A stretch of DNA of 64,000 nucleotides from an uncultured Ignavibacteriales bacterium (GTDB lineage: Bacteria > Zixibacteria > MSB-5A5 > GN15 > FEB-12), in the NCBI GenBank assembly GCA_964416195.1, contig CAYQDB010000003.1:8555-72554 (forward strand). The letters are read 5' to 3'. The notes beneath the pieces were generated by a model. That model was not told the DNA's origin, searched no databases, and saw only the letters and a list, made by a program, of their open reading frames with translations. How positions within the stretch are numbered: the first letter of the stretch is position 1; every line of letters starts with the position of its first letter. The position numbers and the translations under genes are program-made. Positions 29,355 through 63,112 of this stretch are shown one piece after another.

Positions 29355-29356
29355 CC

Positions 29357-32071: not shown

Positions 32072-32104
32072 GATGACTTTCTGCAGCTTTGAGGAGGGAC
32101 AACT

Positions 32105-33432: not shown

Positions 33433-33652
33433 CGGACCAACCGGTCGGAAGGAGGAGGAACCTGCCTGATAGATATTCGATTCGCAGCACAGTTTCCGGA
33501 CAAGATATTAGAAATTGCCTCACTCAGGTAAAGCCACATTATTCCCTTGAGGGTATCGCCGGTAGAAGAGTCATCCGTTTGCCGAAAAAGTTTTAGTTGT
33601 AAACCGTTGCGAGCAATTCTATCATTTCACCAATGGATGGCTGAGGTTTGTC

Positions 33653-41404: not shown

Positions 41405-42415
41405 ATGGATTTTGAGCAAATGACCCCCATTCAGAAGGCGGCTGTCGCACTGGTTGCTTTTGGTCCGGAAGTTTCGGCGCATGTCCTCAAGGGATTGCCC
41501 GAGGAAGATATTGAGAAACTTACCGTTGAGATCGCCGGTATGCGTGACGTACCAATAGAAGTAGAAGATAAGGTTATAGAAGAATGTTACCAGATTTTCA
41601 TGGCCCGTCAGTATATATCTCAGGGCGGTGTTGACTTCGCTCGGGAGATACTCGAAAAAGCCGTCGGTCTCGAAAAAGCCAAAGAGATTATGGGTCGCCT
41701 GGAGTCGTCTATCAAGTCCACCGGTTTCTCTCTCCTTAAGGATATTGACCCTAAACAGCTAACCAGTTTTCTGCAGAATGAACATCCACAAACTATTTCG
41801 CTAATTCTCACTCAGCTTTCACCGCAGCATGCAGCCGCGATCCTGGCGGAACTGACACCGGAGTTGCAGGCTGAAGTATCCCTTCGTGTCGCCACTATGG
41901 AAAAGATCGCGCCTGAGATTCTTGGGGAGATCGAACAGACGCTACAAGGCCATTTTGAGCAGTCAACAGGTGCCGGAGTGACAGCATCCGGGGGAGCCAA
42001 AGCGGTGGCGGAAATACTGAACCTTATTGATGCCACAGCGGAAAAGAACATCCTGCAATCCCTGGAAGCCGAAGACCCCGACCTTGCCGCTGAAGTCAAG
42101 AATATGATGTTCGTCTTTGACGACATTACGTTGCTTGATGACCGTTCGATCCAGCGTCTGCTCAAGGATGTGGAGACGAAAGACCTTGCTATCGCACTGA
42201 AGGCGGCCAGCGAGGAAGTGAAAGGGAAAATCTTTGCCAACGTGTCGGAGCGAGTGGCGGTAATGATCAAAGAGGAAATGGAATTCATGGGTCCGACACG
42301 TCTTTCCGATGTTGAGGCTGCCCAGAGCCGCATCGTCGAATCGGTGCGCCGCCTGGAAGAAGAAGGTCAGATTATCGTAGCCGGGCGGGGAGGCAAAGAG
42401 GAAATTATTGTCTAA
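41405..42415 (+). CDS. fliG: flagellar motor switch protein FliG
   Basis: 336 aa with HPQTISLIL, MFVFDDI and RLEEEGQI. Confidence 0.95.
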   Translation: MDFEQMTPIQKAAVALVAFGPEVSAHVLKGLPEEDIEKLTVEIAGMRDVPIEVEDKVIEECYQIFMARQYISQGGVDFAREILEKAVGLEKAKEIMGRLESSIKSTGFSLLKDIDPKQLTSFLQNEHPQTISLILTQLSPQHAAAILAELTPELQAEVSLRVATMEKIAPEILGEIEQTLQGHFEQSTGAGVTASGGAKAVAEILNLIDATAEKNILQSLEAEDPDLAAEVKNMMFVFDDITLLDDRSIQRLLKDVETKDLAIALKAASEEVKGKIFANVSERVAVMIKEEMEFMGPTRLSDVEAAQSRIVESVRRLEEEGQIIVAGRGGKEEIIV

Positions 42416-43121
42416 GCTCATCCGACATACCACCCAGGCTCCCACGGTGTACATCGGGGGGAAGCATCTTGACTTTGAAAGAGAGGCGCTGGCCGAACGG
42501 AAACTCGGTAGTATCTTTCCATTGGTTTCAATTGTTACCGACCCCGACGGCGCTAAGCTGATCCCGATTCAAGAGGTGTTCAAGATAGAAGGGGTATATG
42601 AAGATGAGACGCGCCAGGCGCGCCAGGCGGGGTACGATGAAGGTTACCGGACAGGTTTGAACCAGGGACGGGCCGAGGGACGGGCCGAGGCGGAAAAGGT
42701 TTTGCAGCAGTTTAACCAGGCCATCACGGACGCCGTGCAACAGCGAGAAATACTTCTTAGTGAGGCAAAACAGAAAGTACTTGATCTGGTCATTCAGATA
42801 AGTCGCAAGGTGACCTTCGACGCTGTTACTGTCGACCCGGAGTCGACACTGGCCACGATCAGCGGCGTGATTGATACCCTGATAGATCGCTCGAAGCTGA
42901 AAATCAGAGTCAACCCCAATCATCTCCCGATTGTTGAGCAGAATATTGAGCGTTTTGTGGCAGGTTCGGTAACCATCAAAGAAATATCAATTGAACCTGA
43001 TCCTCGTGTCCGCTATGGAGGCTGCCTGATCGAAACACCGACCGGCGATATCGATGCTCGCCTGGAATCACAGCTCGAGGTTATCGAGGAGATGATTCTG
43101 TCGGACGAGGAACGGCCGTGA
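42408..43121 (+). CDS. fliH: flagellar assembly protein FliH
   Basis: GYDEGYRTGLNQGRAEGRAEAE and position between fliG and fliI. TTG start. Confidence 0.8.
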   Translation: MSKLIRHTTQAPTVYIGGKHLDFEREALAERKLGSIFPLVSIVTDPDGAKLIPIQEVFKIEGVYEDETRQARQAGYDEGYRTGLNQGRAEGRAEAEKVLQQFNQAITDAVQQREILLSEAKQKVLDLVIQISRKVTFDAVTVDPESTLATISGVIDTLIDRSKLKIRVNPNHLPIVEQNIERFVAGSVTIKEISIEPDPRVRYGGCLIETPTGDIDARLESQLEVIEEMILSDEERP

Positions 43122-48045: not shown

Positions 48046-48741
48046 ATGAACTACTGCAAGGCAGTCTTTTTTCTCCCGCTCGTGGCAATCACGTTAGCGC
48101 TTGCGGGGCCGGTGCAGGCAGTTACCTGTGACCAGGCAATTATTGAGAAGATGATGGCGATGTACAATCTGGACACAAACTCGTATCAGATTGAAATCCT
48201 GTCCAACAGGCTTGCCTCGGCTGAGGCGACTGTGGACAATATCGCTATCCGTCCTCTAACGGCAAAAGAACCTTTGGGGTTGTTCACTGTCATGGCCAAG
48301 GTTAGCGAAGGCAGCGAGTTTGTTGAAAGCGGCCAAATTCGTATGAGGATCAGGCAGTTTGCAGATGTGGTCGTACTCTCCGACAGAATCCGGAGCCGTC
48401 AACCGCTGACTGCGGATTGTCTGACTGTCAAGCGGATGGACATTACTTCTCTACACGAAAAACCGCTGCCATCACTTGCTGCCATCGATGGTTATCGGGT
48501 TAGGCGAAACCTGCGCCGAGGCACGATCCTCACAACATCGGCTATCGAACCTATACCGGACATCGAATCCGGACGGGAGCTCTCCATTGTCTATGTTGAT
48601 GGCCTGTGTCGGATCACGACCGTCGGGGTGGCTCTTCAAACGGGTATGGCTGGTGACTACATAAAGGTCAAGAATAAGGGGTCCGGCAAAATAATCCTGG
48701 CCCGCGTTGTTGATGGCGCTGCGGTGGCCGTCGATCCATGA
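48046..48741 (+). CDS. flgA: flagellar P-ring assembly chaperone FlgA
   Basis: Signal peptide, SAF-like C-terminal region (G..I.V.N..SGK...A.V) and position before flgH. Confidence 0.8.
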   Translation: MNYCKAVFFLPLVAITLALAGPVQAVTCDQAIIEKMMAMYNLDTNSYQIEILSNRLASAEATVDNIAIRPLTAKEPLGLFTVMAKVSEGSEFVESGQIRMRIRQFADVVVLSDRIRSRQPLTADCLTVKRMDITSLHEKPLPSLAAIDGYRVRRNLRRGTILTTSAIEPIPDIESGRELSIVYVDGLCRITTVGVALQTGMAGDYIKVKNKGSGKIILARVVDGAAVAVDP

Positions 48742-49364: not shown

Positions 49365-50498
49365 ATGCTGACAGGACTCTTTAGCAGAATGGCAATGCCT
49401 TCGCCCCTGGTGCTCGTGTTGTCTTTGGTGGCAGCGTTCTATGTTCCCGCAGAGGCGGGAAAGGTGAGAGTGAAGGACATCTGCTCATTTCAGAACAAGC
49501 AGGAAGTCGATTTGATCGGCTACGGGCTCGTGATCGGTCTGGACGGGACCGGTGACGGAACCGGCACGCAGTTTACAGTGCAATCTCTGGCCAACATGAT
49601 GGAACGGATGGGGCTGACCGTTGAGGCCGGTAAGATCAAGGTAAAAAATGTCGCCGCTGTCATAGTTACGGCGCGCATCTCCAGCCAGCAGACCGAAGGC
49701 TCTTGCTTTGACGTCACCGTGTCGTCGCTTGGCGACGCCTCGTCGCTCCAGGGTGGGATGCTGTTGTTGACGCCGCTTGCCGGGCCGCATGGGAGCGTCC
49801 GGGCTATGGCGCAAGGGCCGGTTTCAATCGGTGGTTTCAATGTTCAAGTCGACGAAAATAAAATAGTTAACAACTACACGCTCGTAGGGAGGGTCCCGGG
49901 AGGGGGGAAAATAACAAATCCGCTGGAAACACCGGAAAAGTGCGCATCGGAGATTTATCTATCACTATTTGACCCCGATGTCACGACTGCCTACCGTATT
50001 GCTGAGCGGATCAATATCAAGTATGGACTGACGTCTTCTCCTGTTAATGGGGGAACGGTCCGGGTAGTAGTTCCGGACTCGCTGGCTCAACCGACTGCGA
50101 GAATGAAATTCATCTCCGATATCGGTCTTCTCCAGGTGGTGCCTGATAACAACGCTCGTGTTGTTATCAATGAGAAGACAGGTACTATCGTAGCTGGCCA
50201 GCATGTCACTATCGAGCCGGTGGCAATCGCGCACGGAGCGATAACCGTCAACATTCAGTCAACCCCGGTTATCTCACAGCCGGAGCCGTTTAGCGATGGC
50301 GAAACAGTCGTTACTCAGCAGGCGCGCATCAGCGTGAACGATGAACCGGCACACGTGGTGCACCTGAAACGCTCAGTCTACCTTTCAGACATAGCTAAAG
50401 CCATGAACAAGATCGGCGCCACGCCGCGAGACATCATCGCCATCTTTCAGGCTCTCAAACAGGCAGGCGCCCTCAGAGCAGAGCTGATCATACTGTAA
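49365..50498 (+). CDS. flgI: flagellar P-ring protein FlgI
   Basis: VRVKDI, L.GYGLV.GL.GTGD and C-terminal ALKQAGAL.AEL(I)I(L). Confidence 0.95.
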   Translation: MLTGLFSRMAMPSPLVLVLSLVAAFYVPAEAGKVRVKDICSFQNKQEVDLIGYGLVIGLDGTGDGTGTQFTVQSLANMMERMGLTVEAGKIKVKNVAAVIVTARISSQQTEGSCFDVTVSSLGDASSLQGGMLLLTPLAGPHGSVRAMAQGPVSIGGFNVQVDENKIVNNYTLVGRVPGGGKITNPLETPEKCASEIYLSLFDPDVTTAYRIAERINIKYGLTSSPVNGGTVRVVVPDSLAQPTARMKFISDIGLLQVVPDNNARVVINEKTGTIVAGQHVTIEPVAIAHGAITVNIQSTPVISQPEPFSDGETVVTQQARISVNDEPAHVVHLKRSVYLSDIAKAMNKIGATPRDIIAIFQALKQAGALRAELIIL

Positions 50499-51451
50499 TG
50501 GTGCCTACCGTTAAATCTCATGTAGGGATTTATCCCCAGACCGCGATCGAGAGACTGAAAGACTCTAACGGCGGCGATATCGGGATGGAAAAGCAACGTC
50601 TGCGAAAGGCGACAAAAGAGTTCGAATCGCTTTTCATGTATGAGATGCTCAAAACGATGCGCAAAACGATACCGGGTGACGACTCATCCGAAAACAACGT
50701 CTTCTCAACTGATCTGGGGAAAGACACTTATACACAAATGTTTGACATGGAACTGGCCAGGAAGTTAACCAGCGGCGGGCAGGGCTCAATCGCTGATATG
50801 CTCTATAACTCTCTTGAGAGGGTGATTGCTGACCAACCCCGGTCTGAATCTTCACCGGTTAAGATCAAAGCTCTGAATCAAGCGGAGACAAAACTGACAA
50901 CTCTTGATCGGGAGCAAAAGAATATCCCGCTGCATCGGCTGCGGCCGGTCTCAATGCTTCCCAGGACACCGGGATTTGTTCCCATCCGGTCTGTCACGGC
51001 AAGTCGCTCACAGGACCCGATTATCTCCCAGTTTGGCCGGTACATCGAAGAAGCTGCCCAACAGACCTTGCTCGATTCATCCTTGATCTATGCCGTAATC
51101 AAGACTGAGTCTGACGGTGACCCACGCGCCATTTCACAGGTAGGAGCCAAGGGTCTGATGCAACTGGCGGACTCAACAGTGCAGGATTACAACGTCTCCC
51201 AGGTGTTTGATCCCAGGGAAAACATCCTCGCCGGCAGCAAGTATCTCCGGGACCTGGTCGACCGCTTTGGCAACCTGGAATTGGCACTCGCCGCTTACAA
51301 TGCGGGCCCACGGAATGTAGAGCGGCACGATGGTGTCCCGCCGTTCAAGGAAACAAGGGCATTCGTTGACAGAGTAATGCGCATTGTCGCGTCGCATAAT
51401 CGCACACTGCCGGAGCGTGAAGCTAAAGTAAGCACAGGAAGTGACCGATAA
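50498..51451 (+). CDS. flgJ: FlgJ-like rod-assembly protein: rod-binding N-domain fused to SLT-type lytic transglycosylase
   Basis: N-terminal KEFESLFMYEMLKTMRKT (rod-binding). C-terminal ESDGDP.A.S..GAKGLMQL...AAYNAGP (family-1 lytic transglycosylase). Confidence 0.8.
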   Translation: MVPTVKSHVGIYPQTAIERLKDSNGGDIGMEKQRLRKATKEFESLFMYEMLKTMRKTIPGDDSSENNVFSTDLGKDTYTQMFDMELARKLTSGGQGSIADMLYNSLERVIADQPRSESSPVKIKALNQAETKLTTLDREQKNIPLHRLRPVSMLPRTPGFVPIRSVTASRSQDPIISQFGRYIEEAAQQTLLDSSLIYAVIKTESDGDPRAISQVGAKGLMQLADSTVQDYNVSQVFDPRENILAGSKYLRDLVDRFGNLELALAAYNAGPRNVERHDGVPPFKETRAFVDRVMRIVASHNRTLPEREAKVSTGSDR

Positions 51452-51483: not shown

Positions 51484-51969
51484 ATGGTAGATCGGTTAAT
51501 TGACATCCTTGGAAAAGAGGCGGCTCTCTTTGAATCGTTTCTCGATTTGCTGGAACAGCAGCAGCAGATGCTGGTCGCAAACAACCTCGAGGGACTGAAC
51601 AAAGTCACTGACCTGCAGCGAGAGAAGCTGATCGAAAGTCGGATATTGAATCGTCAGCGTGAGGAGCTGGTTGAGCGGATCAAAGTGGCCAATGAGATCG
51701 ACGGAGACCTGAACGTGGCACGCCTCCTGGAATTGGTTGATACCAACCGTGCGGGCCAGTTGACCAAATTGAGGGAGATTATTCTTAACCTCAGTGAGAA
51801 AATTACCCAGACCCGTAATCAGAATGCGATGCTGTTGAACCGGTCGCGTGAGTATATCGCGAAGACAATGGAAATGTTGTCACAAATTCACAACCCCAAA
51901 GGCGCCTATGCGTCGAGTGGGGCTGAGCAGCAGCGAACGGCAAACGTTGCCGTAGACAGGAGAGTCTGA
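51484..51969 (+). CDS. flgN: FlgN-family flagellar chaperone
   Basis: 161-aa helical protein with L..E...F..LL.LLE.QQQ.L. Lies immediately upstream of and overlapping flgK. Confidence 0.65.
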   Translation: MVDRLIDILGKEAALFESFLDLLEQQQQMLVANNLEGLNKVTDLQREKLIESRILNRQREELVERIKVANEIDGDLNVARLLELVDTNRAGQLTKLREIILNLSEKITQTRNQNAMLLNRSREYIAKTMEMLSQIHNPKGAYASSGAEQQRTANVAVDRRV

Positions 51970-53363
51970 TGCCGGGATTGTTCCAGGGACTTGAGCTGGG
52001 AAAACGGGCGCTGCTCACACACCAGACTTACCTGCAGACAATAGGGCACAATATTGCCAACGTCAATACCCCGGGCTACAGCCGTCAGCGGGTGAGCATT
52101 TCATCGACTTTTCCCGAACACAACGCGATAGGAACGATTGGCACCGGCGTAGCCGTTACCGACATCCGGCAGGTTCGCGATTTATTCCTGGGTGAGCAGT
52201 TTCGGAAGGAGAACAAGTCGCTTGGGCAGTGGTCGTACAAGCACAAGATTATGTCCCAGATTGAGGCTGTCTTTGGTGAACCAAACAGCAATACTCTCTC
52301 AGACCTGCTGAACGACTTCTGGGATGGTTGGGATGATCTTTCCACCAACCCAAGTTCTACCAGTCCCCGGGTGGCTCTCATTGAAAACGCTAACCTGCTG
52401 ACTAATCGTTTCCACGAGGTGGCCGCACAGCTAAATACTCTGCGCGATGCTATCGACGGCAACCTGGTTGCTATGACCAGCAATATCAACAGTCTCACCG
52501 CCGATGTGGCCCGTCTGAATGGCCAGATCAAAAAGCAGGAACTTGGCGGTGGTCGAGCCAACGACCTTCGTGATGTCCGCGATCAGCTCATTGATGAGTT
52601 GTCCGAGTATATCGACGTCAATACTATTGAGCAGAAAGACGGTCAGGTGCGCGTTTTTATTGGAGCAATGGAAATCGTAAATGGTGTCGATCAGGTGAAT
52701 ATCAACACAAGGGTCTTCAATGATAATGGTACGATCACGCACCAGCTCGTTTGGGAAAACAGCAACATGGTCGTGGGAAATACCAATGGTCAGTTCAAGG
52801 GGCTCCTGGATGCTCGCGATGATATTGTCCCCAGATACCTGGAACAACTGGACATACTGGCACAGGAACTGATTCAGCAGGTTAATAGCTTACACAGCAC
52901 CGGCTATGGCCTTGATGGCTCAACTGGTGTCGATTTTTTCGATAGCGCTTGTACCGGAGCTGCCAGCATCAGCTTAAACACGGCACTGGCCCAGAACCCG
53001 GACCGAATTGCCGCCTCCGCCAGTGGAGAGGAGGGCGATAATACTATTGCCCTGGCGATACAGGACTTGCGCAACCAGAGAGTCATGGAAAACAACACGA
53101 CAACGATGAGCGACTATTATAACAGCGTAATAGGCAAGCTCGGTGTCGAGGCACACGGAGCCCAGTCCCTTTCTGAAAACTATGAACTTCTGGTGCATCA
53201 GGTGTTGAGTGCCAGGGAATCAGTTCAGGGAGTTTCCCTCGATGAAGAGATGACGAACTTGGTGAAGTTTCAACATGCCTATGACGCGGCTGCCAGAGTC
53301 ATTACGACGATGGATGAAGCGCTTGATATGGTGATTCTCAGGATGGGGGTCACGGGTCGATAG
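51969..53363 (+). CDS. flgK: flagellar hook-associated protein 1 FlgK
   Basis: IGHNIANVNTPGYSRQR and C-terminal VSLDEEMTNLVKFQHAYDAAARVI. Confidence 0.9.
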   Translation: MPGLFQGLELGKRALLTHQTYLQTIGHNIANVNTPGYSRQRVSISSTFPEHNAIGTIGTGVAVTDIRQVRDLFLGEQFRKENKSLGQWSYKHKIMSQIEAVFGEPNSNTLSDLLNDFWDGWDDLSTNPSSTSPRVALIENANLLTNRFHEVAAQLNTLRDAIDGNLVAMTSNINSLTADVARLNGQIKKQELGGGRANDLRDVRDQLIDELSEYIDVNTIEQKDGQVRVFIGAMEIVNGVDQVNINTRVFNDNGTITHQLVWENSNMVVGNTNGQFKGLLDARDDIVPRYLEQLDILAQELIQQVNSLHSTGYGLDGSTGVDFFDSACTGAASISLNTALAQNPDRIAASASGEEGDNTIALAIQDLRNQRVMENNTTTMSDYYNSVIGKLGVEAHGAQSLSENYELLVHQVLSARESVQGVSLDEEMTNLVKFQHAYDAAARVITTMDEALDMVILRMGVTGR

Positions 53364-53407: not shown

Positions 53408-53743
53408 GTGCTCATACTTACACGGAGGTTGGGTGAATCAATCACCATTGGAGACAACATTAAGGTCTCCGTACTCGGTATTCATGGACGGCAAGTGCGG
53501 TTGGGAATCGATGCCCCGCCGGAAGTGGTTGTGCATCGAGAAGAGATATACGTTAGAATTCAGACAGAGAACCGCAAGGCGTCGAAGTCTATCAAGAAAG
53601 ACTTGGTCGGCATGGTGCATTTGATCAAGGATAAGATAAAAAAGAAGGACCATCGGCAGACTAACTCGGCGAAGATTAACTACAAAGATAAGCCGCCAAA
53701 AGGCGGACGTAGCAGTAAGGGCAGAGAGGGAACGGTTGGGTAG
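53408..53743 (+). CDS. csrA: carbon storage regulator CsrA with about 50-aa Lys-rich C-terminal extension
   Basis: [48 protein letters not shown], then a basic tail [22 protein letters not shown]...[11 protein letters not shown] start. Confidence 0.9.
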
Positions 53744-53777: not shown

Positions 53778-55697
53778 ATGCGCATCACTACTAACATGCT
53801 CACCGACCAAGTTGCCTACAATATGCAGCGTAATATCAGGCGCTACATGGAGATACAGACTCAGTTCTCTTCGGGACGAAGGATTAACACCCCGTCGGAC
53901 GACCCTGTCGGGACTCAGCGCGATCTTATGTATCGTACTGAGCTGGCCAAAGGCGAGCAGTACCGCAAAAACATCAGCCAAGGTCAGAATTGGATGCAAT
54001 CGTATGACAGCATCCTCTGCGACCTTAAGGATCTGTTTTCCAGCGGTAAGGAAATCGCGATCGATATGTCCAACGGTATCTACGATAGTGTGGCGCGCGA
54101 AGGTGCGGCCAACGAGATTGAGTCTGCTTTTAACCGACTGATCCAGTTAGCCAACAGTGAACTTGAAGGGAAATTCCTGTTTTCCGGTTTCAGGACCAGC
54201 ACGAAAGCTATCGTGGCTTCTGCCAATGGCGTGGTTTACGGAGGAGACGAGGGCCGGATTGAGTTCCAGATTGACTCCTCTTCACGCATGGGAGTCAACT
54301 TGACGGCTCAGGATGTTTTCCTTGCCTCTCTGTCTGTTATAGGCCAGAACGCTGATCTGAACCCGGTGATTATCAGTTCCACCTCATTGTCGGACCTCCA
54401 TAACGGGCAGGGAGTCGATCAGAGTCCAGGCACCTTTACCATTACCGATCAGAACCTGGGTATCGTTTCCACCATCGACGTGAGCGCCGCTGTCGATATC
54501 AATGACGTTCTCGCAACCATAAATACCCAACTGGCTGCCGACGGAATCACTAACCTTCAGGCTACGATCGGCCAGGAGAAGAACAATATCCTGCTGGATA
54601 CGACTCAGAACGGTCTCATATCGAACGTGACGACTCTGGACAAACTGAATAGCGGGACCGGTATTGACCTAACCCCCGGGAAGATACTCGTGACCGATGG
54701 TGGAACCATCAACGCCACGATCGATTTCTCTGGTTCTACTACCATCGGGGATATCATCACGGCCTTCAATACCCAATTGGCGGCGCAGGGAGCAGCCAAT
54801 GTCACCATGCAGATAAATGCCGCCAACACTGGCTTGGAGATCATTGACTCCAACGGGGCGCCGCTTGGTTTGAGCATTATGGAGGCTGACCTATCTGAGA
54901 ACACTGCCTCCAACCTCGGCATCCTGGGCGATGTCGATCCCATCCTGGTAGGGGGCGATCTTGACCCGGTAGTCAGCTTCAAAGTTGAAGAGATCACAGG
55001 CACAACGGCTACCGATCTGGGAATCATAGGCGAGTTTTCCGGGGATTTCGCCGGTACGGACCTTGACCCATTATTGCTTGCCACTTCGAACATAGCGGAT
55101 CTAAATGCCGGTGGTGGCTATGAGCTCGGTGAGATTGTCATATGCCAGGGGGATACCAGCCGAACTATTGATCTCTCCAGCCTCGCAATTGTCACTGTGC
55201 AGGACATACTGGATGCCATCAATGGTTGCGGCCTGGACATCACTGCCTCTATTAACGCCAATGGACAAGGTATTCAGATTGTCAACGATGATCCTACCCG
55301 ATCGTTAACCGTTGAGGACGTCCCCGGTGGCAGAACAACGAAGGATTTGGGAATCTTCGGCTCAAGTGACATGATGGGAACAATGCTGGTCCTCATGAAC
55401 TCCCTGCGCAACGATGATCAGGAAGGTACCGGACTGCTGTTACAGAACCTGGATGACAGCATGCAGCACTTGTTGAATCAGCGTGCGTCAGTGGGCGCCA
55501 AAGCTATGCGTCTCGAGGGTACCCACGCTCGTCTGGTGGATCTCGACATGAGCTTTATTAAGCTGCTCAGCGAAGTGGAGGACGCTGATATCACCAAGTT
55601 GGTCACGGACTTGGCAACCTACGAAAACAATTACAAAGCCTCGCTGATAGCAAGCTCCAAGATTATACAGTCGTCGCTATTGGATTTTCTGGAGTAG
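53778..55697 (+). CDS. flgL: flagellar hook-associated protein 3 FlgL, expanded (639 aa) with internal repeat modules
   Basis: Flagellin-type N-terminus (MRITTNM...SSGRRINTPSDDP) and C-terminus (RASVGAKAMRLE). The central part has three modules of about 75 aa with Flagellin_IN-like motifs. Confidence 0.8.
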   Translation: MRITTNMLTDQVAYNMQRNIRRYMEIQTQFSSGRRINTPSDDPVGTQRDLMYRTELAKGEQYRKNISQGQNWMQSYDSILCDLKDLFSSGKEIAIDMSNGIYDSVAREGAANEIESAFNRLIQLANSELEGKFLFSGFRTSTKAIVASANGVVYGGDEGRIEFQIDSSSRMGVNLTAQDVFLASLSVIGQNADLNPVIISSTSLSDLHNGQGVDQSPGTFTITDQNLGIVSTIDVSAAVDINDVLATINTQLAADGITNLQATIGQEKNNILLDTTQNGLISNVTTLDKLNSGTGIDLTPGKILVTDGGTINATIDFSGSTTIGDIITAFNTQLAAQGAANVTMQINAANTGLEIIDSNGAPLGLSIMEADLSENTASNLGILGDVDPILVGGDLDPVVSFKVEEITGTTATDLGIIGEFSGDFAGTDLDPLLLATSNIADLNAGGGYELGEIVICQGDTSRTIDLSSLAIVTVQDILDAINGCGLDITASINANGQGIQIVNDDPTRSLTVEDVPGGRTTKDLGIFGSSDMMGTMLVLMNSLRNDDQEGTGLLLQNLDDSMQHLLNQRASVGAKAMRLEGTHARLVDLDMSFIKLLSEVEDADITKLVTDLATYENNYKASLIASSKIIQSSLLDFLE

Positions 55698-55718: not shown

Positions 55719-56198
55719 ATGCTTGTACAAACTGTGCGATTTGGGCAGCTTGAGGTTCCTGAGAGCAAGTTGATCAGAATGCAGAAGCCGATACTGGGCT
55801 TTGAACGTCTTGGCCTTTACTGCCTGGTCGAGAGAGAGGAGTTTCGGCCGTTTCTCTGGCTGCAGTCGGTGGAGGATCCGGCGGTCGCTTTCGTTGTGGT
55901 CAACCCCCTTGTGTTCTTCGCAGATTACCGAATTGAAGTGCATTCCAACGAGCTTGCTGAGCTGATGATTACCCACACCGATCGTGTGGAGACGTATGTC
56001 ATTGTTACGATACCTGAGGATCCTACTCAGATGTCCGCCGATCTGCAGGGTCCGATTGTGATCAATACCGAAAACAACCGAGCTAAACAACTGGTGCTGG
56101 TCAACTCGGACTACCATATTGCGCACAGTATCTTCGATGCCATCCAGGGTGCAGGTGCGCCGGTAGTGGCGGTAGAAAAAGAGCCTGTCGGTGTCTGA
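55719..56198 (+). CDS. fliW: flagellar assembly factor FliW
   Basis: FGQLEV.ES.LI.....ILGFE.L......E......FLWLQS.ED..VAFVVVNP. About 150 aa. Confidence 0.9.
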   Translation: MLVQTVRFGQLEVPESKLIRMQKPILGFERLGLYCLVEREEFRPFLWLQSVEDPAVAFVVVNPLVFFADYRIEVHSNELAELMITHTDRVETYVIVTIPEDPTQMSADLQGPIVINTENNRAKQLVLVNSDYHIAHSIFDAIQGAGAPVVAVEKEPVGV

Positions 56199-57939
56199 AT
56201 CTCCACTGGGCTCAGTCCGAAAGGACAGTGCCCAACAAAAAGGGACGGAGCATACCCACAAAGCTAAACAACTTGGAAATCGGAATTCCAGTATGGAGCG
56301 AACCGACGGCAAAATGGAACAGACCGACCAGCTCCCTGCAGACCTTTCAGTCGAGGAGCTCACGCGTCGGGCGAATACCTATCTTGAGAAGAATGACTTA
56401 ACACAGGCCTATCCCTATGTCTCCCGTCTGGCTGAGCACGAGGCATCCCAGCCGCAAGCGGCCGTTACTGCTGGCCTGATGGCGCTGACGCTTGGCAAGA
56501 AGGACGAAGCGGCAAAACAGTTCCGGTGCGCCAGAGACCGAGCTCCAGACAACTTCGATGCCAACTACAATCTTGCCCTGCTGGACATGATCGAAGGTAA
56601 TTACGATGAAGCTGTAATCATTCTTCAGTCCTTAGTTCGGCTCCAGTCGGACAACGCCGCTTTGCACAACGACCTTGCCGTTGTCTTGATGAACAAGGAA
56701 GAGTCCCAAGGAGCGCTCCGGTCGTTCGAAAAAGCTCTACGTCTGGACCCGAACTTTGCCAAGGCCCGCCGGAATAGTATGCAGTTCGTTTTGAGAAAGG
56801 GTCTTTTTGACGAGGGCAGACACCTCCTTCAGATTAACGCTAATCATCCCCAAGTCTCAGAGGCATCTCTGGCGGATATCAAAAGGTGGCGCAGCGCCAT
56901 TGACCAATCGTCTCCTGGCTCACATGTCGCTGAGTCCAGTGAAACCAAGCCTGCGCTAATGTCTGAATCCTGTAACGGACGTCTGAAAGGTAAAAAGATC
57001 GCCTTTTTTGCTAGCCAGCGGACTTTCATAAAAGACATCATTGCGCGCTTGTCGAAGGAAAACGAAGCCCGGATATTCGGAGGCGAGTCGCTGCAGGAGA
57101 TGAAAGACCTGATGGCTTGGGCCGATCTCACCTGGTTCGAGTGGTGTGATTCCCTGATAATTGAAGCAACCAAGCATCCGAAGCTGTGCCCGATCATATG
57201 CCGACTGCACAGCTACGAAGCCTTCACGGATATGCCGAGCAAGGTAGACTGGAGCAAGGTTGACAGGTTGGTGTTCGTCAATGAATCGGTTAAGGAGATA
57301 TTTCAACGCCAGGTGCGTACCAATGTCCCTGTCAGCATCGTTCATAATGGCGTTGACATCAACAGGTTTAACATTCCCGCTGACAAAGAGTATGGAAAGA
57401 AGATAGCTTCGGTAGGTTATATCAATTACAAGAAGAATCCGGCTTTGCTGCTATATTGTTTCAAAAAGATACATGCCTATGATTCCGAATACAGCCTTCA
57501 CATTGCCGGACAACATCAAGACTCCCGCATCCAACTCTATTTTGAGCACTTCCTGCGCAAAAACCCACTTCCAGTGCGTTTTCACGGCTGGATTGATGAC
57601 ATGCCAGCATGGTATGCGGACAAAGACTATGTCATCTCAACCTCTCTGTTTGAATCGTTCCATTATTCAATTGCCGAGGGAATGGCCTCGGGATTGATGC
57701 CGCTCATTCATGACTGGTACGGTGCCAAAGGGGTCTATCCGCAGGAGTTTCTTTTCACTGATCCCGACGAATGTCTCAGCCTGTTGAAGCGCCAAGAGAA
57801 GCTCGAGAAACATCAATTAGCTCAGGAGAACCGGCGGTTCATTGTGGAACGTTATAACCAGGCTGATAAGTACAGACAGATAGAAGAGCAATTAGCTCTG
57901 GTAATAGAAAACAGCCATGCCGAACTATCGATGTTATAA
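56191..57939 (+). CDS. TPR-repeat protein fused to GT-B (GT4-like) glycosyltransferase; candidate flagellin glycosyltransferase
   Basis: N-terminal TPRs. The C-terminal ESFHYSIAE (E-x7-E) motif is followed by GMASGLMPLIHD. Start is uncertain: GTG 56191 or ATG 56293. Confidence 0.7.
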   Translation: MSESPLGSVRKDSAQQKGTEHTHKAKQLGNRNSSMERTDGKMEQTDQLPADLSVEELTRRANTYLEKNDLTQAYPYVSRLAEHEASQPQAAVTAGLMALTLGKKDEAAKQFRCARDRAPDNFDANYNLALLDMIEGNYDEAVIILQSLVRLQSDNAALHNDLAVVLMNKEESQGALRSFEKALRLDPNFAKARRNSMQFVLRKGLFDEGRHLLQINANHPQVSEASLADIKRWRSAIDQSSPGSHVAESSETKPALMSESCNGRLKGKKIAFFASQRTFIKDIIARLSKENEARIFGGESLQEMKDLMAWADLTWFEWCDSLIIEATKHPKLCPIICRLHSYEAFTDMPSKVDWSKVDRLVFVNESVKEIFQRQVRTNVPVSIVHNGVDINRFNIPADKEYGKKIASVGYINYKKNPALLLYCFKKIHAYDSEYSLHIAGQHQDSRIQLYFEHFLRKNPLPVRFHGWIDDMPAWYADKDYVISTSLFESFHYSIAEGMASGLMPLIHDWYGAKGVYPQEFLFTDPDECLSLLKRQEKLEKHQLAQENRRFIVERYNQADKYRQIEEQLALVIENSHAELSML

Positions 57940-57944
57940 AAGGA

Positions 57945-60659
57945 ATGTGTATGAGCAGGTCGAAAGGTAAAAGCAGCCGAAGACGAAAGCTGCCTAAGAA
58001 AAGCAGCAATCGGGAGCGAAAGTTGAGGAAAGAGTTTCCTCCCGAATCACTTGATACTCTTCTAGCTGCCGTCCGGACGAACCCGGATGACATCCTGGCC
58101 CGATTGGAACTGGGTGAGTACTATTTGAGAAACGACCTGGAAGAAAAGATTCTTGACGCTATTGCCAACCTCGAGAGACAGTATCCTTTTCCCAATCGGT
58201 TCACACGTGGGTACTACAACCGGCTACTGGCTTTTGGCTATGCCCATCGCAATCAGTTTGTTGAGGCTGAGGAAGCGGCCCGCCGGGGAGTCGAGGAGTA
58301 CCCCGACTCGCTGGATTTCTATTTCGTACTTAGTTATGTCCACTTGTCGCTGAAAGAAGTTGATCGGACCATAGAGCAGGCGGAGCGCTTTGTTTCCATA
58401 TGGAATAAGATTAAGCAGGGGCGTCTGTCGCCGACAGATTTCAGCTTCACGGGCCGGGATATAACACAGTTGTATAACATCCTTGCCACCGCCTACCGTG
58501 ATAAAGGGGATGTGTCACAGGCTCGTCGATATTATGAGAAGGCAATCAAAGCTGACCCCGGCAACCACCTGCCATATACCAACCTTGCCAATCTGCTCAA
58601 ACAATATGGTGAGCTTGACAGAGCCGAAGAAATCATCCGGCGCGGTTTGTCACAATGCCGTCAAATAAATGAGTTGCGCATGATCGCCGGGTCGCTCGAG
58701 CACAAGGCGGCTGTTTCAGCCTGTATGATAGTCAAGAATGAAGAGGAACTGCTACCGGGTTGCCTTGAGTCAATACGGGACTGGATTGACGAGCTTATTG
58801 TCGTCGATACAGGTTCGACCGACCGTACGGTCGAGATTGCTGAATCCTACGGTGCTCATGTCTTTCATCAATCCTGGGAGGGCGATTTCTCCAAACATCG
58901 CAACTTCTCCATCGCCCAGGCTACCCGTGAGTGGGTTTTCATCATCGATGCCGACGAGTGTATTTATCAAGAAGATGTTTCCCTTATCAAGAAAGTTCTG
59001 AACCAACAAGACTATAATATCATCTCCATAAATGTTTTCAACGTTACCGGTAAGAACGAAGAGCAGGTTACTTTCCTGCCCTCTATCCGGTTCTTCAGGA
59101 GGAACCTGGGCTTAAAGTATGAAGGAATTGTCCACAATCTCCTGCTTCCCCCGGCTGACCAACCCATAATGCGAGCCGGCATCAGGCTGAAGCACTATGG
59201 GTACGGACTGTCGCCGGAGAAAATGAAAGCCAAGATGTCTCGCTCTAAGGAGCTGTTGGAAAAACAGATAACGGAAAATCCCAACAATTCCTTTGCCTTG
59301 TTCAATTATGCCCAGTTGCTGCGTGGGGAGGGAGTAGAGGGCCGCCCTGAAAATGCCTCAAAGATCATCGAAGCGGCAGGCCGTGCATTGGAACTAACTC
59401 ACCCTGATATCGCCTCCGAGCGCCATATTCACATCATGGCTCATCACCAGCTTGCCTGGGTCTACTTTGTCCTCGGCAAGTACGAGAAAGCTGAACGGTA
59501 TTGCTTCGATGTTCTCCTATTCAAACCTGACTATCTGGACGCCCTGCTTCTGCTGGGGCATATCTACCTGAGGCAAGAGTTCTTCGACAAAGCGGAACAG
59601 TATTATCGGAAGTACATTGAAGCTCAGAGAAAATACAATGAGACCTGTGAGGTCGACAACATCATCATTCTCAACCCGCGCAGCCTGCCTGCCGCCTACT
59701 ACGGCCTCGGGTTGGCGGCGGAACATACGGGCGATTTGGAAAAAGCCGGGCAGCACTATCGCAGGACATTTCAACTGTCTCCGGGGTATATGGATGTCAG
59801 TTTTCGCCTTGGCCGGTTATATTTGATCGACCATGACTATGGGGAAGCGGAACGATGCTTCTTAAAGCAGTTGGAATTGGATGAGAAGTCGCACCAGGCT
59901 GTAGTTGGGCTGGCCGATCTATATTTCGCCCAGAAGAACTTTGAAAAAGCAGAAGAATACTATCAACGGGCTCTCGAGATCAGCCCAACAGATAATGCCT
60001 CGCTCATAAGATACGGCCATTTCCTCCTGGAGAGGGGGGAGAAAAATCGGGCTGTCGAGATGTTCAAGAAAGCAGCCGAGTCCGCCGGTTCCCCAGGAAA
60101 GGCTGAGCGTTACTTAGCTGAAACCTACTTCCGGCAGAACCGCTTTGAAGAGGCTGCCGACGTTTATCGGAAGCTACTGGAAGTCGAGCAAGATGACGGC
60201 GAGATCCTAAACGATCTGGGTAACTGCTATTACAAGTCCGGTCAGTGGGAAGAGGCGGAAGATCAGTATTTGCAGGCCATTGAGTCTCCTTCGGTTCTGG
60301 CTGTCGCCTATCGGAATCTGGGACTGGCCCGGGTGAAGCTCGGCAAACTCAATGAGGCCATTGTCGCCCTTGAGAAGTATGTTGAGCTGGATCCTGAGCA
60401 ACGCGATATCTACCATATTATAGGCGACCTCTATTCCAGACTGAGCGAGTACGACCTCGCAATCCCTTACTACGAGAGGTTTCTCCAGGCCTGTCCCAGT
60501 GACCCGCTGGCCCTGTACCACCTGTCGGAGTGCTATCTTAACATGGGACATAGAGATTCAGCCCTTCTTGGGTATCGCCGTGTTCTCGAGCTGGATAGCA
60601 GTTTCAAGCCGGCTCAAAAGCGGCTGGTCGAGCTGGCAGAGCTGGCCACCAAAGCCTGA
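57945..60659 (+). CDS. TPR - GT2 glycosyltransferase - TPR protein; candidate flagellin glycosyltransferase
   Basis: SACMIVKNEEELL..CLESI....DELIVVDTGSTDRT and IIDADE (DxD), flanked by many TPR units. Confidence 0.8.
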   Translation: MCMSRSKGKSSRRRKLPKKSSNRERKLRKEFPPESLDTLLAAVRTNPDDILARLELGEYYLRNDLEEKILDAIANLERQYPFPNRFTRGYYNRLLAFGYAHRNQFVEAEEAARRGVEEYPDSLDFYFVLSYVHLSLKEVDRTIEQAERFVSIWNKIKQGRLSPTDFSFTGRDITQLYNILATAYRDKGDVSQARRYYEKAIKADPGNHLPYTNLANLLKQYGELDRAEEIIRRGLSQCRQINELRMIAGSLEHKAAVSACMIVKNEEELLPGCLESIRDWIDELIVVDTGSTDRTVEIAESYGAHVFHQSWEGDFSKHRNFSIAQATREWVFIIDADECIYQEDVSLIKKVLNQQDYNIISINVFNVTGKNEEQVTFLPSIRFFRRNLGLKYEGIVHNLLLPPADQPIMRAGIRLKHYGYGLSPEKMKAKMSRSKELLEKQITENPNNSFALFNYAQLLRGEGVEGRPENASKIIEAAGRALELTHPDIASERHIHIMAHHQLAWVYFVLGKYEKAERYCFDVLLFKPDYLDALLLLGHIYLRQEFFDKAEQYYRKYIEAQRKYNETCEVDNIIILNPRSLPAAYYGLGLAAEHTGDLEKAGQHYRRTFQLSPGYMDVSFRLGRLYLIDHDYGEAERCFLKQLELDEKSHQAVVGLADLYFAQKNFEKAEEYYQRALEISPTDNASLIRYGHFLLERGEKNRAVEMFKKAAESAGSPGKAERYLAETYFRQNRFEEAADVYRKLLEVEQDDGEILNDLGNCYYKSGQWEEAEDQYLQAIESPSVLAVAYRNLGLARVKLGKLNEAIVALEKYVELDPEQRDIYHIIGDLYSRLSEYDLAIPYYERFLQACPSDPLALYHLSECYLNMGHRDSALLGYRRVLELDSSFKPAQKRLVELAELATKA

Positions 60660-60707
60660 GGACTATCGGGCGCTGTTTTTTTCCTCAACCCCTCTCTCTG
60701 TTACCGG

Positions 60708-60734
60708 TTAAGCTGCTCAGTATTCTGCCGATTA
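60708..60734 (+). promoter_or_regulatory. sigma28 (FliA)-type promoter TTAA-N15-GCCGATTA upstream of fliC
   Basis: Compared by eye with the consensus TAAA-N15-GCCGATAA. Lies about 205 nt upstream of the flagellin ATG. Confidence 0.5.
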
Positions 60735-60940
60735 AGAACTTAGAAAAACCTTAATAAGGAAATGAGGGAAACTCAAAACCAAACAAAGGAGGAAAAGAAA
60801 CAAGTTTGTTGAGGGGTTAAATGGACCGTTAACTCGGGGCAACTACTCTAGACATTGGAAGTGACATATGTTGAGTATGTAACCAAAAACAAAGGGGGTG
60901 TATGATGAGACGTTAAAACAGTTCAAGGAGGAATGAGCAT

Positions 60941-63112
60941 ATGGCACTTCGTATTAACCACAACCTGGCAGCTCTCAATGCCCACCGGAACCTGGTGACT
61001 ACCACCAACAGTCTGTCGGCATCGATGGAGAAGCTGTCTTCTGGTTTTCGTATCAACAAGGGGTCGGACAATCCGGCCGGCTTGGTCATATCCGAGCAGT
61101 TCCGCGCGCAGATAGCGGGCCTGAATCGCGCCATTGAAAACTCCGAGGGATCAATAGACATGATCCAGACGGCTGAGGGCGCTCTCACAGAAATCAGCAA
61201 CCTGTTGATCTCCATGAGAGAGCTGGCCATTCATGCCGCGAACGAAGGTTTCAACGATGCCGATCAGCTGGCTGCCGACCAGGCTGAAATTGACAATGCG
61301 ATCAAGACAATTGACCGTATCGCAGCCAACACTCAGTTTGGCACAAAGAAGCTCATTGATGGTTCTAAGGCCAACATCGCTACCGTCACCAGCGCCAATG
61401 CCTCGCAGGCGACAATTTATCAGTCGAGTCTTACCACTGGTATTCACTCCATCAGTGCGACCAAGACTGCCGATCCGACGGCTACGTTGAATACCACGTC
61501 GCTGGGTCTCAGCCTGGCCAATACCGACGGCGACCCCTATAATCTGGAAGAGAAGATCCACAATCTCGACGTTGTGCAGGCTTCCGACGTTGCCAAGAAA
61601 ACGTCTGACCAGGTTACTATCGCCGACGCTTGGGGCAACAACCTGACCATCGCCACCACCGCCACTTACGCCCAGATTACGTCTGCTGCCGCTCTCGCTG
61701 TTGCAACGGCTTCGCACGTGGGCACCTACACGGTCGTCTTCAACTATCAGGAAAGCGGCGAAGCGGTCACGGGCGAGCAGACGATCCAGGTAGCTGTTGA
61801 GGTTGGCGATGACGCTAACACCATCGCTTCTAAGTTCAGCACCCAGATCGCTCTGAATACCGCCCTTGCCGGGAAGGTCCAGGCGAGTGGTACCGCTGGT
61901 GCTGGCAATAGCCTGTTTTTCACAGCGGCCAACGCCGGTGCGCAATTCTCGATGAAGACGAATACTTCGACAACGGATGCTTCCAGTGCACTGTTCTCTA
62001 TCACTTCCCAGTCCTCGCGTGGTTACTCCGGGCGTGATTTGAGCCTCACGGCTACGACCGTCAAGAATAGCTCCGTAACCCAAACGGTAACGCTTGCTTC
62101 CGGTACTTACTCCTCTCTATCCTCGCTTGTGTCAGCTCTTGATACGGCGCTGCTGACTGCCTTTGCTACAGTCTCAGGCGGCACGATAGCCGACGTTGAT
62201 GCGTTGGTCGTCAACAGCAACCAAATACAGCTTGCTACCTGGGATGAAGGCTCTGACTACAAGATCAAGTTGAACACCGTTGGCGGCGGCACTGGCGACC
62301 TCGAGAACGTGCTGCAGCTCACGCCGGATACTTTGGCCAGCAGTGGCACCGATGCACTGGTGAGTTTTGACAACTATACTACCAGCGTAACCAGCGTGAA
62401 ATATGGTTCGACCACCCAGGTTACAATCGGTAGCAAGGCTAGCGGAGAAACCGGCAGAGGCACTGTCAAACTCACGATTTCCAACGCTCAGGTTGGCGTG
62501 AATGTCGGTAACCTGTTACTGGATGTGAAAGCGGCGCGGTTTGACGTCCGTCTTGACGGCGGTCCGGCCACTGCGGTCACGGGAGGCGTGAAGACTAATA
62601 TCTTTAATGCCGACCGTAGCCAATCGCTGATTGTGAAGTACGACTTGGCGTCTACAGGTGGAACGGAAACGATCAATAACACCGATCAGTCTCTTGTTTT
62701 CCAGATTGGCGCCAACGTCGGTCAGACGGCGCGAATTGGCCTGCGCAATATGAGCGCCTCCTCATTGGGCAAGAACCTGCCCGGCAATTTGTACACCTCT
62801 CTTGCCGGGATTGATGTGACCACGGTTCAGGGAGCCCAGGATGCGCAGGCGGTAGTCGATGCCGCCATCAATGAGGTATCTACAACACGTGGTACCCTGG
62901 GTACCTTCCAGAAGAATACGCTGGAATCCAACTTGAGAAACCTCCGGATTGCCTCACAGAACCTGACTGCATCCGAATCCCGAATCCGCGATACGGATAT
63001 GGCGAAGGAGATTTCGAACTTCACCAAGAACCAGATCCTGCTTCAGGCCGGTACCGCTATGCTGGCCCAAGCTAACCAGGTTCCACAAGTTGTTCTCTCC
63101 CTCTTCGGTTAA
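60941..63112 (+). CDS. fliC: flagellin (723 aa, large Ser/Thr/Ala-rich central domain)
   Basis: N-terminal MALRINHNLAALNAHRNL...SSGFRINKGSDNPAGL. C-terminal QILLQAGTAMLAQANQVPQVVLSLFG. Confidence 0.9.
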   Translation: MALRINHNLAALNAHRNLVTTTNSLSASMEKLSSGFRINKGSDNPAGLVISEQFRAQIAGLNRAIENSEGSIDMIQTAEGALTEISNLLISMRELAIHAANEGFNDADQLAADQAEIDNAIKTIDRIAANTQFGTKKLIDGSKANIATVTSANASQATIYQSSLTTGIHSISATKTADPTATLNTTSLGLSLANTDGDPYNLEEKIHNLDVVQASDVAKKTSDQVTIADAWGNNLTIATTATYAQITSAAALAVATASHVGTYTVVFNYQESGEAVTGEQTIQVAVEVGDDANTIASKFSTQIALNTALAGKVQASGTAGAGNSLFFTAANAGAQFSMKTNTSTTDASSALFSITSQSSRGYSGRDLSLTATTVKNSSVTQTVTLASGTYSSLSSLVSALDTALLTAFATVSGGTIADVDALVVNSNQIQLATWDEGSDYKIKLNTVGGGTGDLENVLQLTPDTLASSGTDALVSFDNYTTSVTSVKYGSTTQVTIGSKASGETGRGTVKLTISNAQVGVNVGNLLLDVKAARFDVRLDGGPATAVTGGVKTNIFNADRSQSLIVKYDLASTGGTETINNTDQSLVFQIGANVGQTARIGLRNMSASSLGKNLPGNLYTSLAGIDVTTVQGAQDAQAVVDAAINEVSTTRGTLGTFQKNTLESNLRNLRIASQNLTASESRIRDTDMAKEISNFTKNQILLQAGTAMLAQANQVPQVVLSLFG

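Follow-up and report, generated by a model that had tools for sequence, protein, structure and literature searches.

Glycosyltransferases that carry tetratricopeptide repeats (TPRs) and are encoded at flagellar loci are already established in the form of GmaR, FlmG and Maf-1. GmaR of Listeria monocytogenes is a GT2-family flagellin beta-O-N-acetylglucosamine (GlcNAc) transferase, in which the N-terminal domain transfers N-acetylglucosamine to flagellin, and it doubles as the anti-repressor of MogR (PMC9638930). FlmG, which is reported to be confined to the Caulobacterales and to use cytidine monophosphate (CMP)-linked nonulosonic acids (bioRxiv 10.1101/2023.12.03.569772), joins a TPR domain that binds flagellin to a GT-B domain that picks the donor (PMC7591256; bioRxiv 10.1101/2022.03.25.485807). 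The Maf (MAF_flag10/DUF115) enzymes are nonulosonic-acid transferases acting in cytoplasmic flagellin O-glycosylation, and Maf-1 and Maf-2 modify different serines (bioRxiv 10.1101/2023.12.03.569772). Binding of flagellin by the TPR domain has been shown for FlmG (PMC7591256) and for Maf-1 (bioRxiv 10.1101/2023.12.03.569772), whereas for GmaR it is a proposed role. In type B strains of Clostridioides difficile the enzymes named GT1 and GT2 act sequentially on flagellin, the former adding GlcNAc and the latter rhamnoses (PMC5207246); enzymes combining GT2 and TPR domains have been predicted as flagellin glycosyltransferases in Clostridium islands (PMC13317340), and flagellar islands of Geobacillus often contain GT2 and GT4 enzymes (PMC5109656). 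Here we analyze two neighboring genes for TPR-bearing glycosyltransferases (GTs) in a 64,000-nucleotide stretch of contig CAYQDB010000003.1 (positions 8,555 to 72,554, forward strand; assembly GCA_964416195.1; hereafter the window) from an uncultured bacterium that GTDB places in Zixibacteria, and we propose that they represent such a system in an unstudied phylum.

The open reading frame (ORF) list and Pfam place both genes on the plus strand between fliW and the flagellin gene, where the original prediction had located them. We consider it likely that both enzymes modify flagellin. The earlier claim of two flagellin-directed transferases is supported by the homology of one catalytic domain to that of GmaR, by conserved gene position, and by recurrence in flagellar islands elsewhere, and it is from these that we infer flagellin modification; the acceptor role of flagellin, the sugars donated and the sequence in which the enzymes act are all interpretations of this kind.

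A GmaR-type catalytic domain in the larger enzyme

The larger protein (ORF904; the database version has 902 amino acids (aa) and starts at 57951) had been described as a TPR region, a GT2 domain and a long TPR array with the motifs VKNEE, DTGSTDRT and DADE, and both the domain order and the motifs were confirmed by Pfam and by an alignment of 37 homologues. Pfam recognizes a TPR at the N-terminus, the GT2 domain at aa 258-384 (PF00535, E 1.9e-22) and, towards the C-terminus, a long TPR array, and the three motifs occupy residues 263-267, 288-295 and 335-338 in 904-aa numbering. Residues E264, E265, D286-S289, D291, T293 and D333-E336 (902-aa numbering) are invariant in the 37 homologues and align with the motifs of GmaR. 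A phmmer search against the Protein Data Bank (PDB) matched aa 256-447 to the GmaR GT domain (22ao) with E 2.8e-39, and BLASTP aligned 189 aa of the GT2 domain with GmaR residues 10-203 (38% identity, 62% positives, E 1e-39). VKNEE, DTGSTD, DADE (IDADE in GmaR) and HYGY (H-x-G-Y) are common to the two proteins, and the proposed likeness to GmaR is thus one of true catalytic-domain homology. Both proteins have a homologous GT-A domain followed by TPR helices, are encoded among flagellar genes and are predicted to be cytoplasmic, consistent with the lack of any transmembrane segment in ORF904 by Kyte-Doolittle analysis.

The comparison with GmaR does not extend to its regulatory function. The linker and antirepressor region of GmaR (structure of GmaR 141-637) is not among the PDB matches of full-length ORF904 at E <= 1e-10, and the C-terminus of ORF904 is a canonical TPR superhelix far longer than the helices of GmaR. 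ORF904 is further unlike GmaR in its N-terminal TPR block of ~210 aa, in its disordered basic tail, and in being paired with a second TPR glycosyltransferase. Because the catalytic domain alone matches at the level of sequence, the anti-repressor role of GmaR should not be transferred to ORF904. The partner of GmaR, MogR, is not expected here, since reports of it are limited to Listeria and the Bacillus cereus group (PMC7793685).

The AlphaFold2 (AF2) model of ORF904, with a predicted local distance difference test score (pLDDT) of 88.1, comprises the disordered tail, the TPR block of ~210 residues, the GT-A domain and the TPR superhelix. The first 35 residues (57945-58050), which make up the tail, are highly basic with 14 Lys/Arg. 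Foldseek comparisons were interpreted for compact superpositions only, the whole-chain matches for both window proteins being dominated by TPRs, with root-mean-square deviations (rmsd) of 20-30 Å; Ctr9, SKI3 and TTC21B, which appeared as whole-chain relatives of ORF904, were rejected as TPR-dominated matches in that rmsd range. The C-terminal superhelix resembles the TPR domain of the O-GlcNAc transferase OGT (1w3b/6eou; template modeling score (TM) 0.68-0.77), a domain that the TPR arrays of both window proteins recall.

After GmaR, the nearest relatives of this GT2 domain with solved structures are the peptide S-glycosyltransferases SunS (7msp/7msn, ~1e-21) and ThuS (7msk, 1.6e-17) in phmmer, and Foldseek superposes the domain on SunS 7msp with TM 0.72-0.74 and rmsd 5.3-5.6. 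These enzymes likewise place helical repeats after a GT-A domain, and in SunS and ThuS the repeats bind the peptide substrate. SunS differs in glycosylating a Cys of a small ribosomal peptide, and ORF904 scores far under the cut-off of the NCBIfam SunS family (TIGR04195; E 1.2e-25, 90.2 bits against a cut-off of 350); its neighbors are flagellar, with no glycocin precursor or transporter nearby. The window proteins are also distinct from the Maf enzymes, whose function they presumably share but which have the MAF_flag10 domain and different catalytic folds and donors: in Pfam and NCBIfam no MAF_flag10/DUF115 match was found in the smaller protein at E <= 0.01, and none stands among the best 25 of 46-48 families for ORF904.

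A TPR protein with a GT4-like GT-B domain

The smaller protein was originally read as 582 aa. An ORF of this length does exist (ORF582, 56191-57939) and begins at a GTG that overlaps fliW, but the probable product is 548 aa from the ATG at 56293, which is where the aligned N-termini of 47 homologues begin; the 100%-identical database protein also has 548 aa. The rest of the description, an N-terminal TPR region and a C-terminal GT-B domain with the E-x7-E motif ESFHYSIAE, was borne out by Pfam (TPR at ~aa 60-225; Glycos_transf_1/Glyco_trans_1_4 at aa 399-542, E ~1e-12) and by an alignment of 48 homologues, in which E454 and E462 (548-aa numbering) are invariant within the invariant block S-T-S-x-F-E-S-F-H. 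In the AF2 model of the 548-aa protein (pLDDT 90.1) the TPR helices span aa 20-206, the linker at aa 210-228 falls below pLDDT 50, and the GT-B domain at aa 235-548 is compact. No transmembrane segment is predicted (maximum Kyte-Doolittle score over 19 residues, 0.83).

The TPR region matches TPR proteins among PDB sequences, including the TPR domain of OGT, and the GT-B domain alone gave no match to PDB sequences at E <= 1. In Foldseek the best superpositions of this domain are the GT4 enzymes BshA (6n1x/3mbo; TM 0.66-0.68, rmsd 4.3-4.9), with further compact superpositions on 6eji and a sucrose-phosphate-synthase-like protein (rmsd range 4.3-5.1). By Pfam, the E-x7-E motif and the predicted fold, the catalytic domain is a GT4-like GT-B. 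The GT41 enzymes OGT and SPINDLY share the TPR plus GT-B plan and are the top whole-chain Foldseek matches (E 1e-15 to 1e-12), but ORF582 has no Pfam GT41 match, carries E-x7-E, and superposes better on GT4 in its catalytic domain (rmsd 4.3-4.9 Å). OGT and SPY were accordingly rejected as nearest relatives, the match being driven by TPR architecture at a whole-chain rmsd of ~20 Å.

The likeness to FlmG that had been suggested for this protein holds for the architecture only. FlmG of Caulobacter and Brevundimonas has the same two domains in the same order, TPR first and GT-B second, at a similar length (596 against 548 aa) (PMC7591256), and it too is encoded with flagellar genes; ORF582 is probably cytoplasmic. 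The catalytic domain of ORF582 is GT4-like with E-x7-E, however, and no nonulosonic-acid pathway genes were found nearby among the scanned ORFs. The resemblance to FlmG, which enters this comparison by its published description, is treated here as functional analogy and not as membership.

Conservation of the gene pair in Zixibacteria

The closest named homologues of both proteins come from metagenome-assembled genomes (MAGs) of Candidatus Zixiibacteriota/GN15. Some homologues are labeled Ignavibacteriales, Acidobacteriota or Deferrimicrobium, which we take as labeling or binning noise. A scan with one genome per GTDB species yielded 80 loci, numbered here with the prefix L, of which 68, nearly all from Zixibacteria MAGs, contain a GT-B domain at least 45% identical to that of the window, with identities in this domain reaching down to ~50%. 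A gene position that is not conserved had been named beforehand as part of a possible refutation, and the position proved to be conserved: a FliW homologue lies directly 5' of the GT-B gene at all 60 testable loci, a GmaR-type GT2-TPR gene lies 3' of it at 57/57, and flagellin is found inside the flank at 33 of 47. The two transferase genes are adjacent at 46 of the 57 loci and separated by 2.7-6.4 kb of inserted genes at the other 11. The gap between the GT-B stop and the GT2 ATG measures -8 to +26 nucleotides (nt) in 42 of 50 related loci, which suggests translational coupling. The order flgK-csrA-flgL-fliW-GT-GT is kept in related loci, and three loci drawn from the protein index are arranged alike all the way from flgG to fliC-fliD-fliS. 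The same layout turns up at all related loci that could be assessed, so the arrangement is not due to chance.

In other Zixibacteria the slot between fliW and fliC is enlarged (L047 7162-15271; L057 7905-15486; L042 12156-16300). The added glycosyltransferase genes encode a TPR-GT-B-GT2 fusion of 1153-1159 aa, a further GT2 and a second GT-B paralogue, and they are accompanied by genes for methyltransferases, NAD-dependent epimerase/dehydratases, a GNAT/FemAB-like acyltransferase and a radical SAM/SPASM protein; at L067 two GmaR-like GT2 domains stand in tandem. The slot behaves as a flagellar glycosylation island, of which the window holds the minimal two-gene form.

GT-B relatives in other bacteria

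When 1.84 billion cluster representatives were searched by HMMER with the GT-B domain, 3491 relatives emerged, with 675 clusters (50% identity) at E <= 1e-30. Proteins that carry the domain at 38-46% identity are 300-1850 aa long, and in them it often has a short TPR before it and a GT2 or methyltransferase domain after it. The genomic context of six representatives from outside Zixibacteria (L084-L089) was inspected, and four of them (L084 from Clostridium sp. CX1, and L086, L088 and L089 from metagenomic bacteria; 37-39% identity by BLASTP) lie in flagellar islands that adjoin flagellin, fliD, fliS, fliW and csrA genes. In three of the four islands a GmaR-like GT2, 36-46% identical to the GT2 domain of ORF904, is encoded right beside the flagellin gene. 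One metagenomic island repeats the Zixibacteria layout with fliW ahead of csrA, as flgK-flgL-fliW-csrA-...-GT-B-...-GT2-TPR-fliC.

The island of Clostridium sp. CX1 reads fliW-csrA-flaG-fliS-fliD-fliT-fliC-fliC-GT2-[TPR-GT-B-GT2]-epimerase onward, so that a GmaR-like GT2 (41% identical to that of ORF904) and an ORF582-type GT-B (37%) follow right after the flagellin genes. What sets it apart from the window is an ORF582-type protein in which the TPR is short and a GT2 domain is fused on, and Clostridium islands carry sugar-biosynthesis genes, whereas none was found in the window scan described below. The C. difficile loci, compared here by description, likewise have several glycosyltransferase genes beside fliC, with CD0240/GT1 attaching O-GlcNAc and GT2 and GT3 of type B extending it; we found nothing in the literature linking GmaR and CD0240.

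Matches of 24-32% identity to Rheinheimera and to marine group II archaea in the genome scan cover the glycosyltransferase half only and were set aside as general GT relatives. Those from Rheinheimera are domains of giant multi-GT proteins without TPRs. A search of the GenBank phage collection with the GT-B domain gave no match.

Flagellin and its expression signals

The central domain of the flagellin (aa 146-635) contains 25.7% Ser+Thr, against 12.2% in the other proteins of the window, so that the composition noted originally is confirmed. Upstream of the flagellin gene, a promoter-like element of the sigma-28 (FliA) type, TTAAG-N14-GCCGATTA, can be read from the sequence ~206 nt 5' of the ATG. 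The consensus for FliA/sigma-28 is TAAA-N15-GCCGATAA, to which the element would be a good match. At that distance, 26 of 40 flagellin upstream regions, that of the window included, have a box with CCGAT in it (mostly GCCGAT), usually with T(T/A)AAG 14-15 nt upstream of the box. The Shine-Dalgarno sequence CAAGGAGGA is found in all 40 regions, with the one-base variant CAAGGAGGT in L064. The leader is GGA-rich, which fits control by FliW-CsrA; folding of the 5' leader for CsrA hairpins gave no significant result (z = -1.1). A terminator-like hairpin over the GT2 stop is suggestive only, terminator-like sites in the region being no more numerous than in shuffled sequences.

The transferase genes are probably part of the flgK-fliW transcription unit, co-transcribed from a promoter further upstream. 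As the pair sits in the flgK-csrA-flgL-fliW string and the flagellin gene is preceded by a sigma-28-like promoter of its own and a long leader, production of the enzymes probably starts before that of flagellin. In the same way, expression of FlmG precedes the secretion of flagellin (PMC7591256).

Proposed pathway and alternatives

The two genes would constitute a cytoplasmic flagellin O-glycosylation pair and the minimal core of a flagellar glycosylation island. By analogy with the described systems, each TPR array would bind unfolded or chaperone-bound flagellin. In a first step ORF904 would most likely place an N-acetylhexosamine (HexNAc), probably GlcNAc from uridine diphosphate (UDP)-GlcNAc, onto Ser/Thr of the flagellin central domain, which would form the surface-exposed target region. 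In a second step the 548-aa enzyme would most likely add another sugar, either extending the first or at other Ser/Thr sites. We give this sequence, with HexNAc addition by the GT2 enzyme first and the GT-B enzyme after, a roughly even chance, judging from the better-known enzymes.

The original prediction also stated that the window holds no nucleotide-sugar biosynthesis genes. This is correct as far as the scanned ORFs go: a Pfam scan of 40 of the 51 ORFs of at least 100 aa upstream of flgI, plus flgN, found none, while eleven ORFs of up to ~240 aa (e.g., 42408-43121 and 48046-48741) and all shorter ORFs lie outside it. Nor do the ORFs scanned in the 64-kb window include genes of the CMP-pseudaminic or CMP-legionaminic acid pathways. 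UDP-GlcNAc belongs to the housekeeping metabolites, so that with a GmaR-type enzyme no local sugar genes would be expected. A UDP-GlcNAc 2-epimerase gene (PF02350) is found beside or near ORF582-type genes at three unrelated loci outside Zixibacteria (L084 14137-15192; L087 7910-9004; L088 7880-8992). These neighbors are only a lead to an N-acetylmannosamine-type or related donor for the GT-B family.

Several observations weigh against the proposed pathway. The order of the enzymes and their donors would be assigned purely by analogy, and the presence of TPRs in both enzymes suits direct action in parallel no less than the extension of a chain. At 14 of 47 loci the 8 kb downstream contain no flagellin gene, and in the complete Zixibacteria chromosome CP070756.1 (L001/L008) a histidine kinase and a response regulator take the place of flagellin after the pair. 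Ser/Thr richness is usual in flagellin variable domains, so the composition of the central domain is generic and makes weak evidence for glycosylation. Members of the GT-B family also occur away from flagella. In Latescibacteria (L085) a gene at 8563-10341 encodes a TPR plus an ORF582-type GT with 46% identity in the GT domain; its neighbors are two radical SAM genes (one SPASM) and ABC transporter, PP-binding and AMP-binding genes, none of them flagellar, and the cluster may serve glycosylation of peptides or other molecules. A stand-alone GT-B copy of 324 aa (9001-9975) sits on a phage-like contig (L087, ENA ERZ28563735 scaffold) beside UDP-GlcNAc 2-epimerase and GT2 genes, on a contig that also encodes an intein-containing ribonucleotide reductase, HNH and MazG. 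A plasmid search with the GT-B domain gave five weak matches (22-32% identity); the two that were inspected (27-32%) and the Rheinheimera relative (~30%) are non-flagellar, these three contexts (Rheinheimera, Pantoea and Cytobacillus) being unrelated or of a polysaccharide type. Finally, we found no characterized member of the ORF582-type GT-B family in the literature, and nothing on glycosylation in the literature on flagella of Zixibacteria, an uncultured phylum.

The strongest of the alternatives differs from the proposed pathway in order of action only. The two enzymes could both glycosylate flagellin directly and independently, each with its own sugar at its own Ser/Thr sites, in the manner of the two Mafs of Shewanella. 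Each protein has its own TPR array, the acceptor-binding module in FlmG and Maf-1 (PMC7591256; bioRxiv 10.1101/2023.12.03.569772), and the division of serines between Maf-1 and Maf-2 provides a precedent (bioRxiv 10.1101/2023.12.03.569772). Elsewhere, however, the ORF582-type domain is repeatedly fused to GT2 or methyltransferase domains, as is typical of glycan extenders like GT2 of C. difficile (PMC5207246), and the GmaR-like enzyme stays separate and adjoins the flagellin gene. On this evidence we regard independent action as possible but on the unlikely side. Alternatively, the main acceptor could be another exported axial protein encoded nearby, namely the long FlgL, FlgK or FliD, with flagellin perhaps modified as well. 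The pair shares its string with flgK and flgL, and fliC stands apart behind a promoter-like element of its own; FlgL is about twice its usual size with 18% Ser+Thr in its central part; and some loci, as noted, have no flagellin close downstream. The characterized homologue GmaR nevertheless acts on flagellin (PMC9638930), the GmaR-like gene stands immediately beside flagellin genes in the islands outside Zixibacteria, and among Ser/Thr-rich substrates exposed at the surface flagellin is the most abundant by a wide margin. An axial protein as the main acceptor is, on balance, improbable.

Two further readings dispense with flagellin glycosylation as the main function. One or both proteins could act mainly as regulators or chaperones through their TPRs, with transferase activity secondary or lost, given that GmaR is bifunctional (PMC9638930), that ORF904 devotes ~650 residues to TPRs and adds a disordered, highly basic N-terminal tail, and that the genes lie beside the FliW-CsrA regulatory pair. 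This we hold to be very improbable: the VKNEE/DTGSTD residues, all of DADE and both E-x7-E glutamates are invariant across 37-48 homologues, the TPR, linker and antirepressor part of GmaR is not among the PDB matches noted above, and MogR has the narrow distribution already described (PMC7793685). The proteins might, lastly, be envelope or polysaccharide glycosyltransferases present in the flagellar operon by accident, as the contexts of the GT-B relatives in Rheinheimera, Pantoea and Cytobacillus (27-32%) could suggest. This is barely credible in view of the synteny at 60/60 and 57/57 loci across the 68 sampled, the predicted solubility and TPR arrays of both proteins, and the homology of the GT2 domain to a protein glycosyltransferase, and neither the ORF list nor Pfam shows a flippase, polymerase or undecaprenyl-phosphate transferase gene nearby.

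What appears modestly new, if flagellin is the acceptor as we propose, is the ORF582-type TPR-GT-B module as a widespread, flagellar-island-associated partner of GmaR-type enzymes. More broadly, and with somewhat less than an even chance of being right, the module (an N-terminal TPR, short or long, plus a GT4-like GT-B domain marked by WFEWCD, HSYE and FESFHYS blocks) may define a further widespread class of flagellin glycosyltransferase, an obligate partner of the GmaR-type initiating enzyme, with the two-gene Zixibacteria locus as its minimal form running on housekeeping nucleotide sugars. Such a class would stand alongside the Maf, FlmG and GmaR/CD0240 types. If the proposal is correct, cytoplasmic flagellin O-glycosylation extends to Zixibacteria, an uncultured phylum of the Fibrobacteres-Chlorobi-Bacteroidetes (FCB) group, and the locus offers a very compact model with two enzymes, one acceptor and no dedicated sugar pathway found nearby. 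A system of this size would be practical to rebuild in E. coli in order to ask how TPR arrays choose flagellin and its sites, and a function for the GT-B family would improve the annotation of many flagellar glycosylation islands, although no new principle is revealed.

Organization of the locus

The ORF list, Pfam and NCBIfam show that the window from 49 to 64 kb is a single plus-strand string of late flagellar genes, within which the transferase pair is embedded (Table 1). FliW is a flagellin-binding partner-switch protein, and the NCBIfam FliW models match the window protein with E 7e-41, under their curated cut-offs. ORF904 starts 5-11 nt past the stop of the GT-B gene, depending on the choice of start.

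Table 1. Coordinates of the transferase genes, their domains and motifs, and surrounding features (window positions; E, E value)
Feature	Position	Strand	Remarks
flgI	49365-50498	+	name from Pfam-annotated equivalents in related loci
flgJ	50498-51451	+	name from Pfam-annotated equivalents in related loci
flgN	51484-51969	+	late flagellar string
flgK	51969-53363	+	late flagellar string
csrA	53408-53743	+	PF02599, E 1.2e-24; partner of FliW in flagellin translational control
flgL	53778-55697	+	639 aa, unusually long
fliW	55719-56198	+	159 aa; PF02623, E 1.1e-37; directly 5' of the transferase pair
TPR + GT-B (GT4-like) transferase	56293-57939	+	probable 548 aa; longest ORF from GTG 56191, 582 aa
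N-terminal TPR domain, ~11 helices, then disordered linker	56350-56910	+	AF2, Pfam TPR
GT-B catalytic domain, GT4-like	56995-57936	+	PF00534 E 8.8e-12, PF13692 E 2e-12, both over cut-offs
E-x7-E motif ESFHYSIAE	57652-57678	+	aa 488-496 of the 582-aa ORF
TPR + GT2 (GmaR-type) + long TPR transferase	57945-60659	+	904 aa, or 902 aa from ATG 57951
GT2 (GT-A) catalytic domain, homologue of the GmaR GT domain	58710-59285	+	phmmer, BLASTP, Foldseek
DADE, predicted DxD-type metal and nucleotide-sugar binding motif	58947-58958	+	D333-E336, 902-aa numbering
C-terminal TPR superhelix, ~24 helices	59352-60656	+	Pfam TPR, E down to 1e-61; AF2 helices 467-896
Terminator-like hairpin and T-run over the GT2 gene stop	60654-60681	+	6-bp stem, then GCTGTTTTTT; weak
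Sigma-28 (FliA)-type promoter-like element	60708-60734	+	TTAAG-N14-GCCGATTA
Shine-Dalgarno sequence	60924-60932	+	CAAGGAGGA
Flagellin, presumed acceptor	60941-63112	+	723 aa; Flagellin_N E 6.6e-35, Flagellin_C E 2e-24
fliD start	63219	+	same late flagellar string

FlgL has a large central insertion, and its size is 639-643 aa in related loci; the long FlgL could be a second glycosylation target.

Further upstream in the window, a signaling block at 28062-36339 lies directly upstream of motA/motB. It encodes a GAF-SpoIIE phosphatase, a STAS protein, a 634-aa HEAT-repeat protein, a PAS histidine kinase, a sigma-54 activator and three receiver-only response regulators, and is probably devoted to flagellar regulation. 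Between 22001 and 26000 the GC content falls to 0.444-0.446, compared with ~0.50-0.53 elsewhere, and the minus-strand ORFs at 22844-23368, 23692-24156 and 24153-24620 are without a Pfam match; this low-GC segment may be a small foreign insert.

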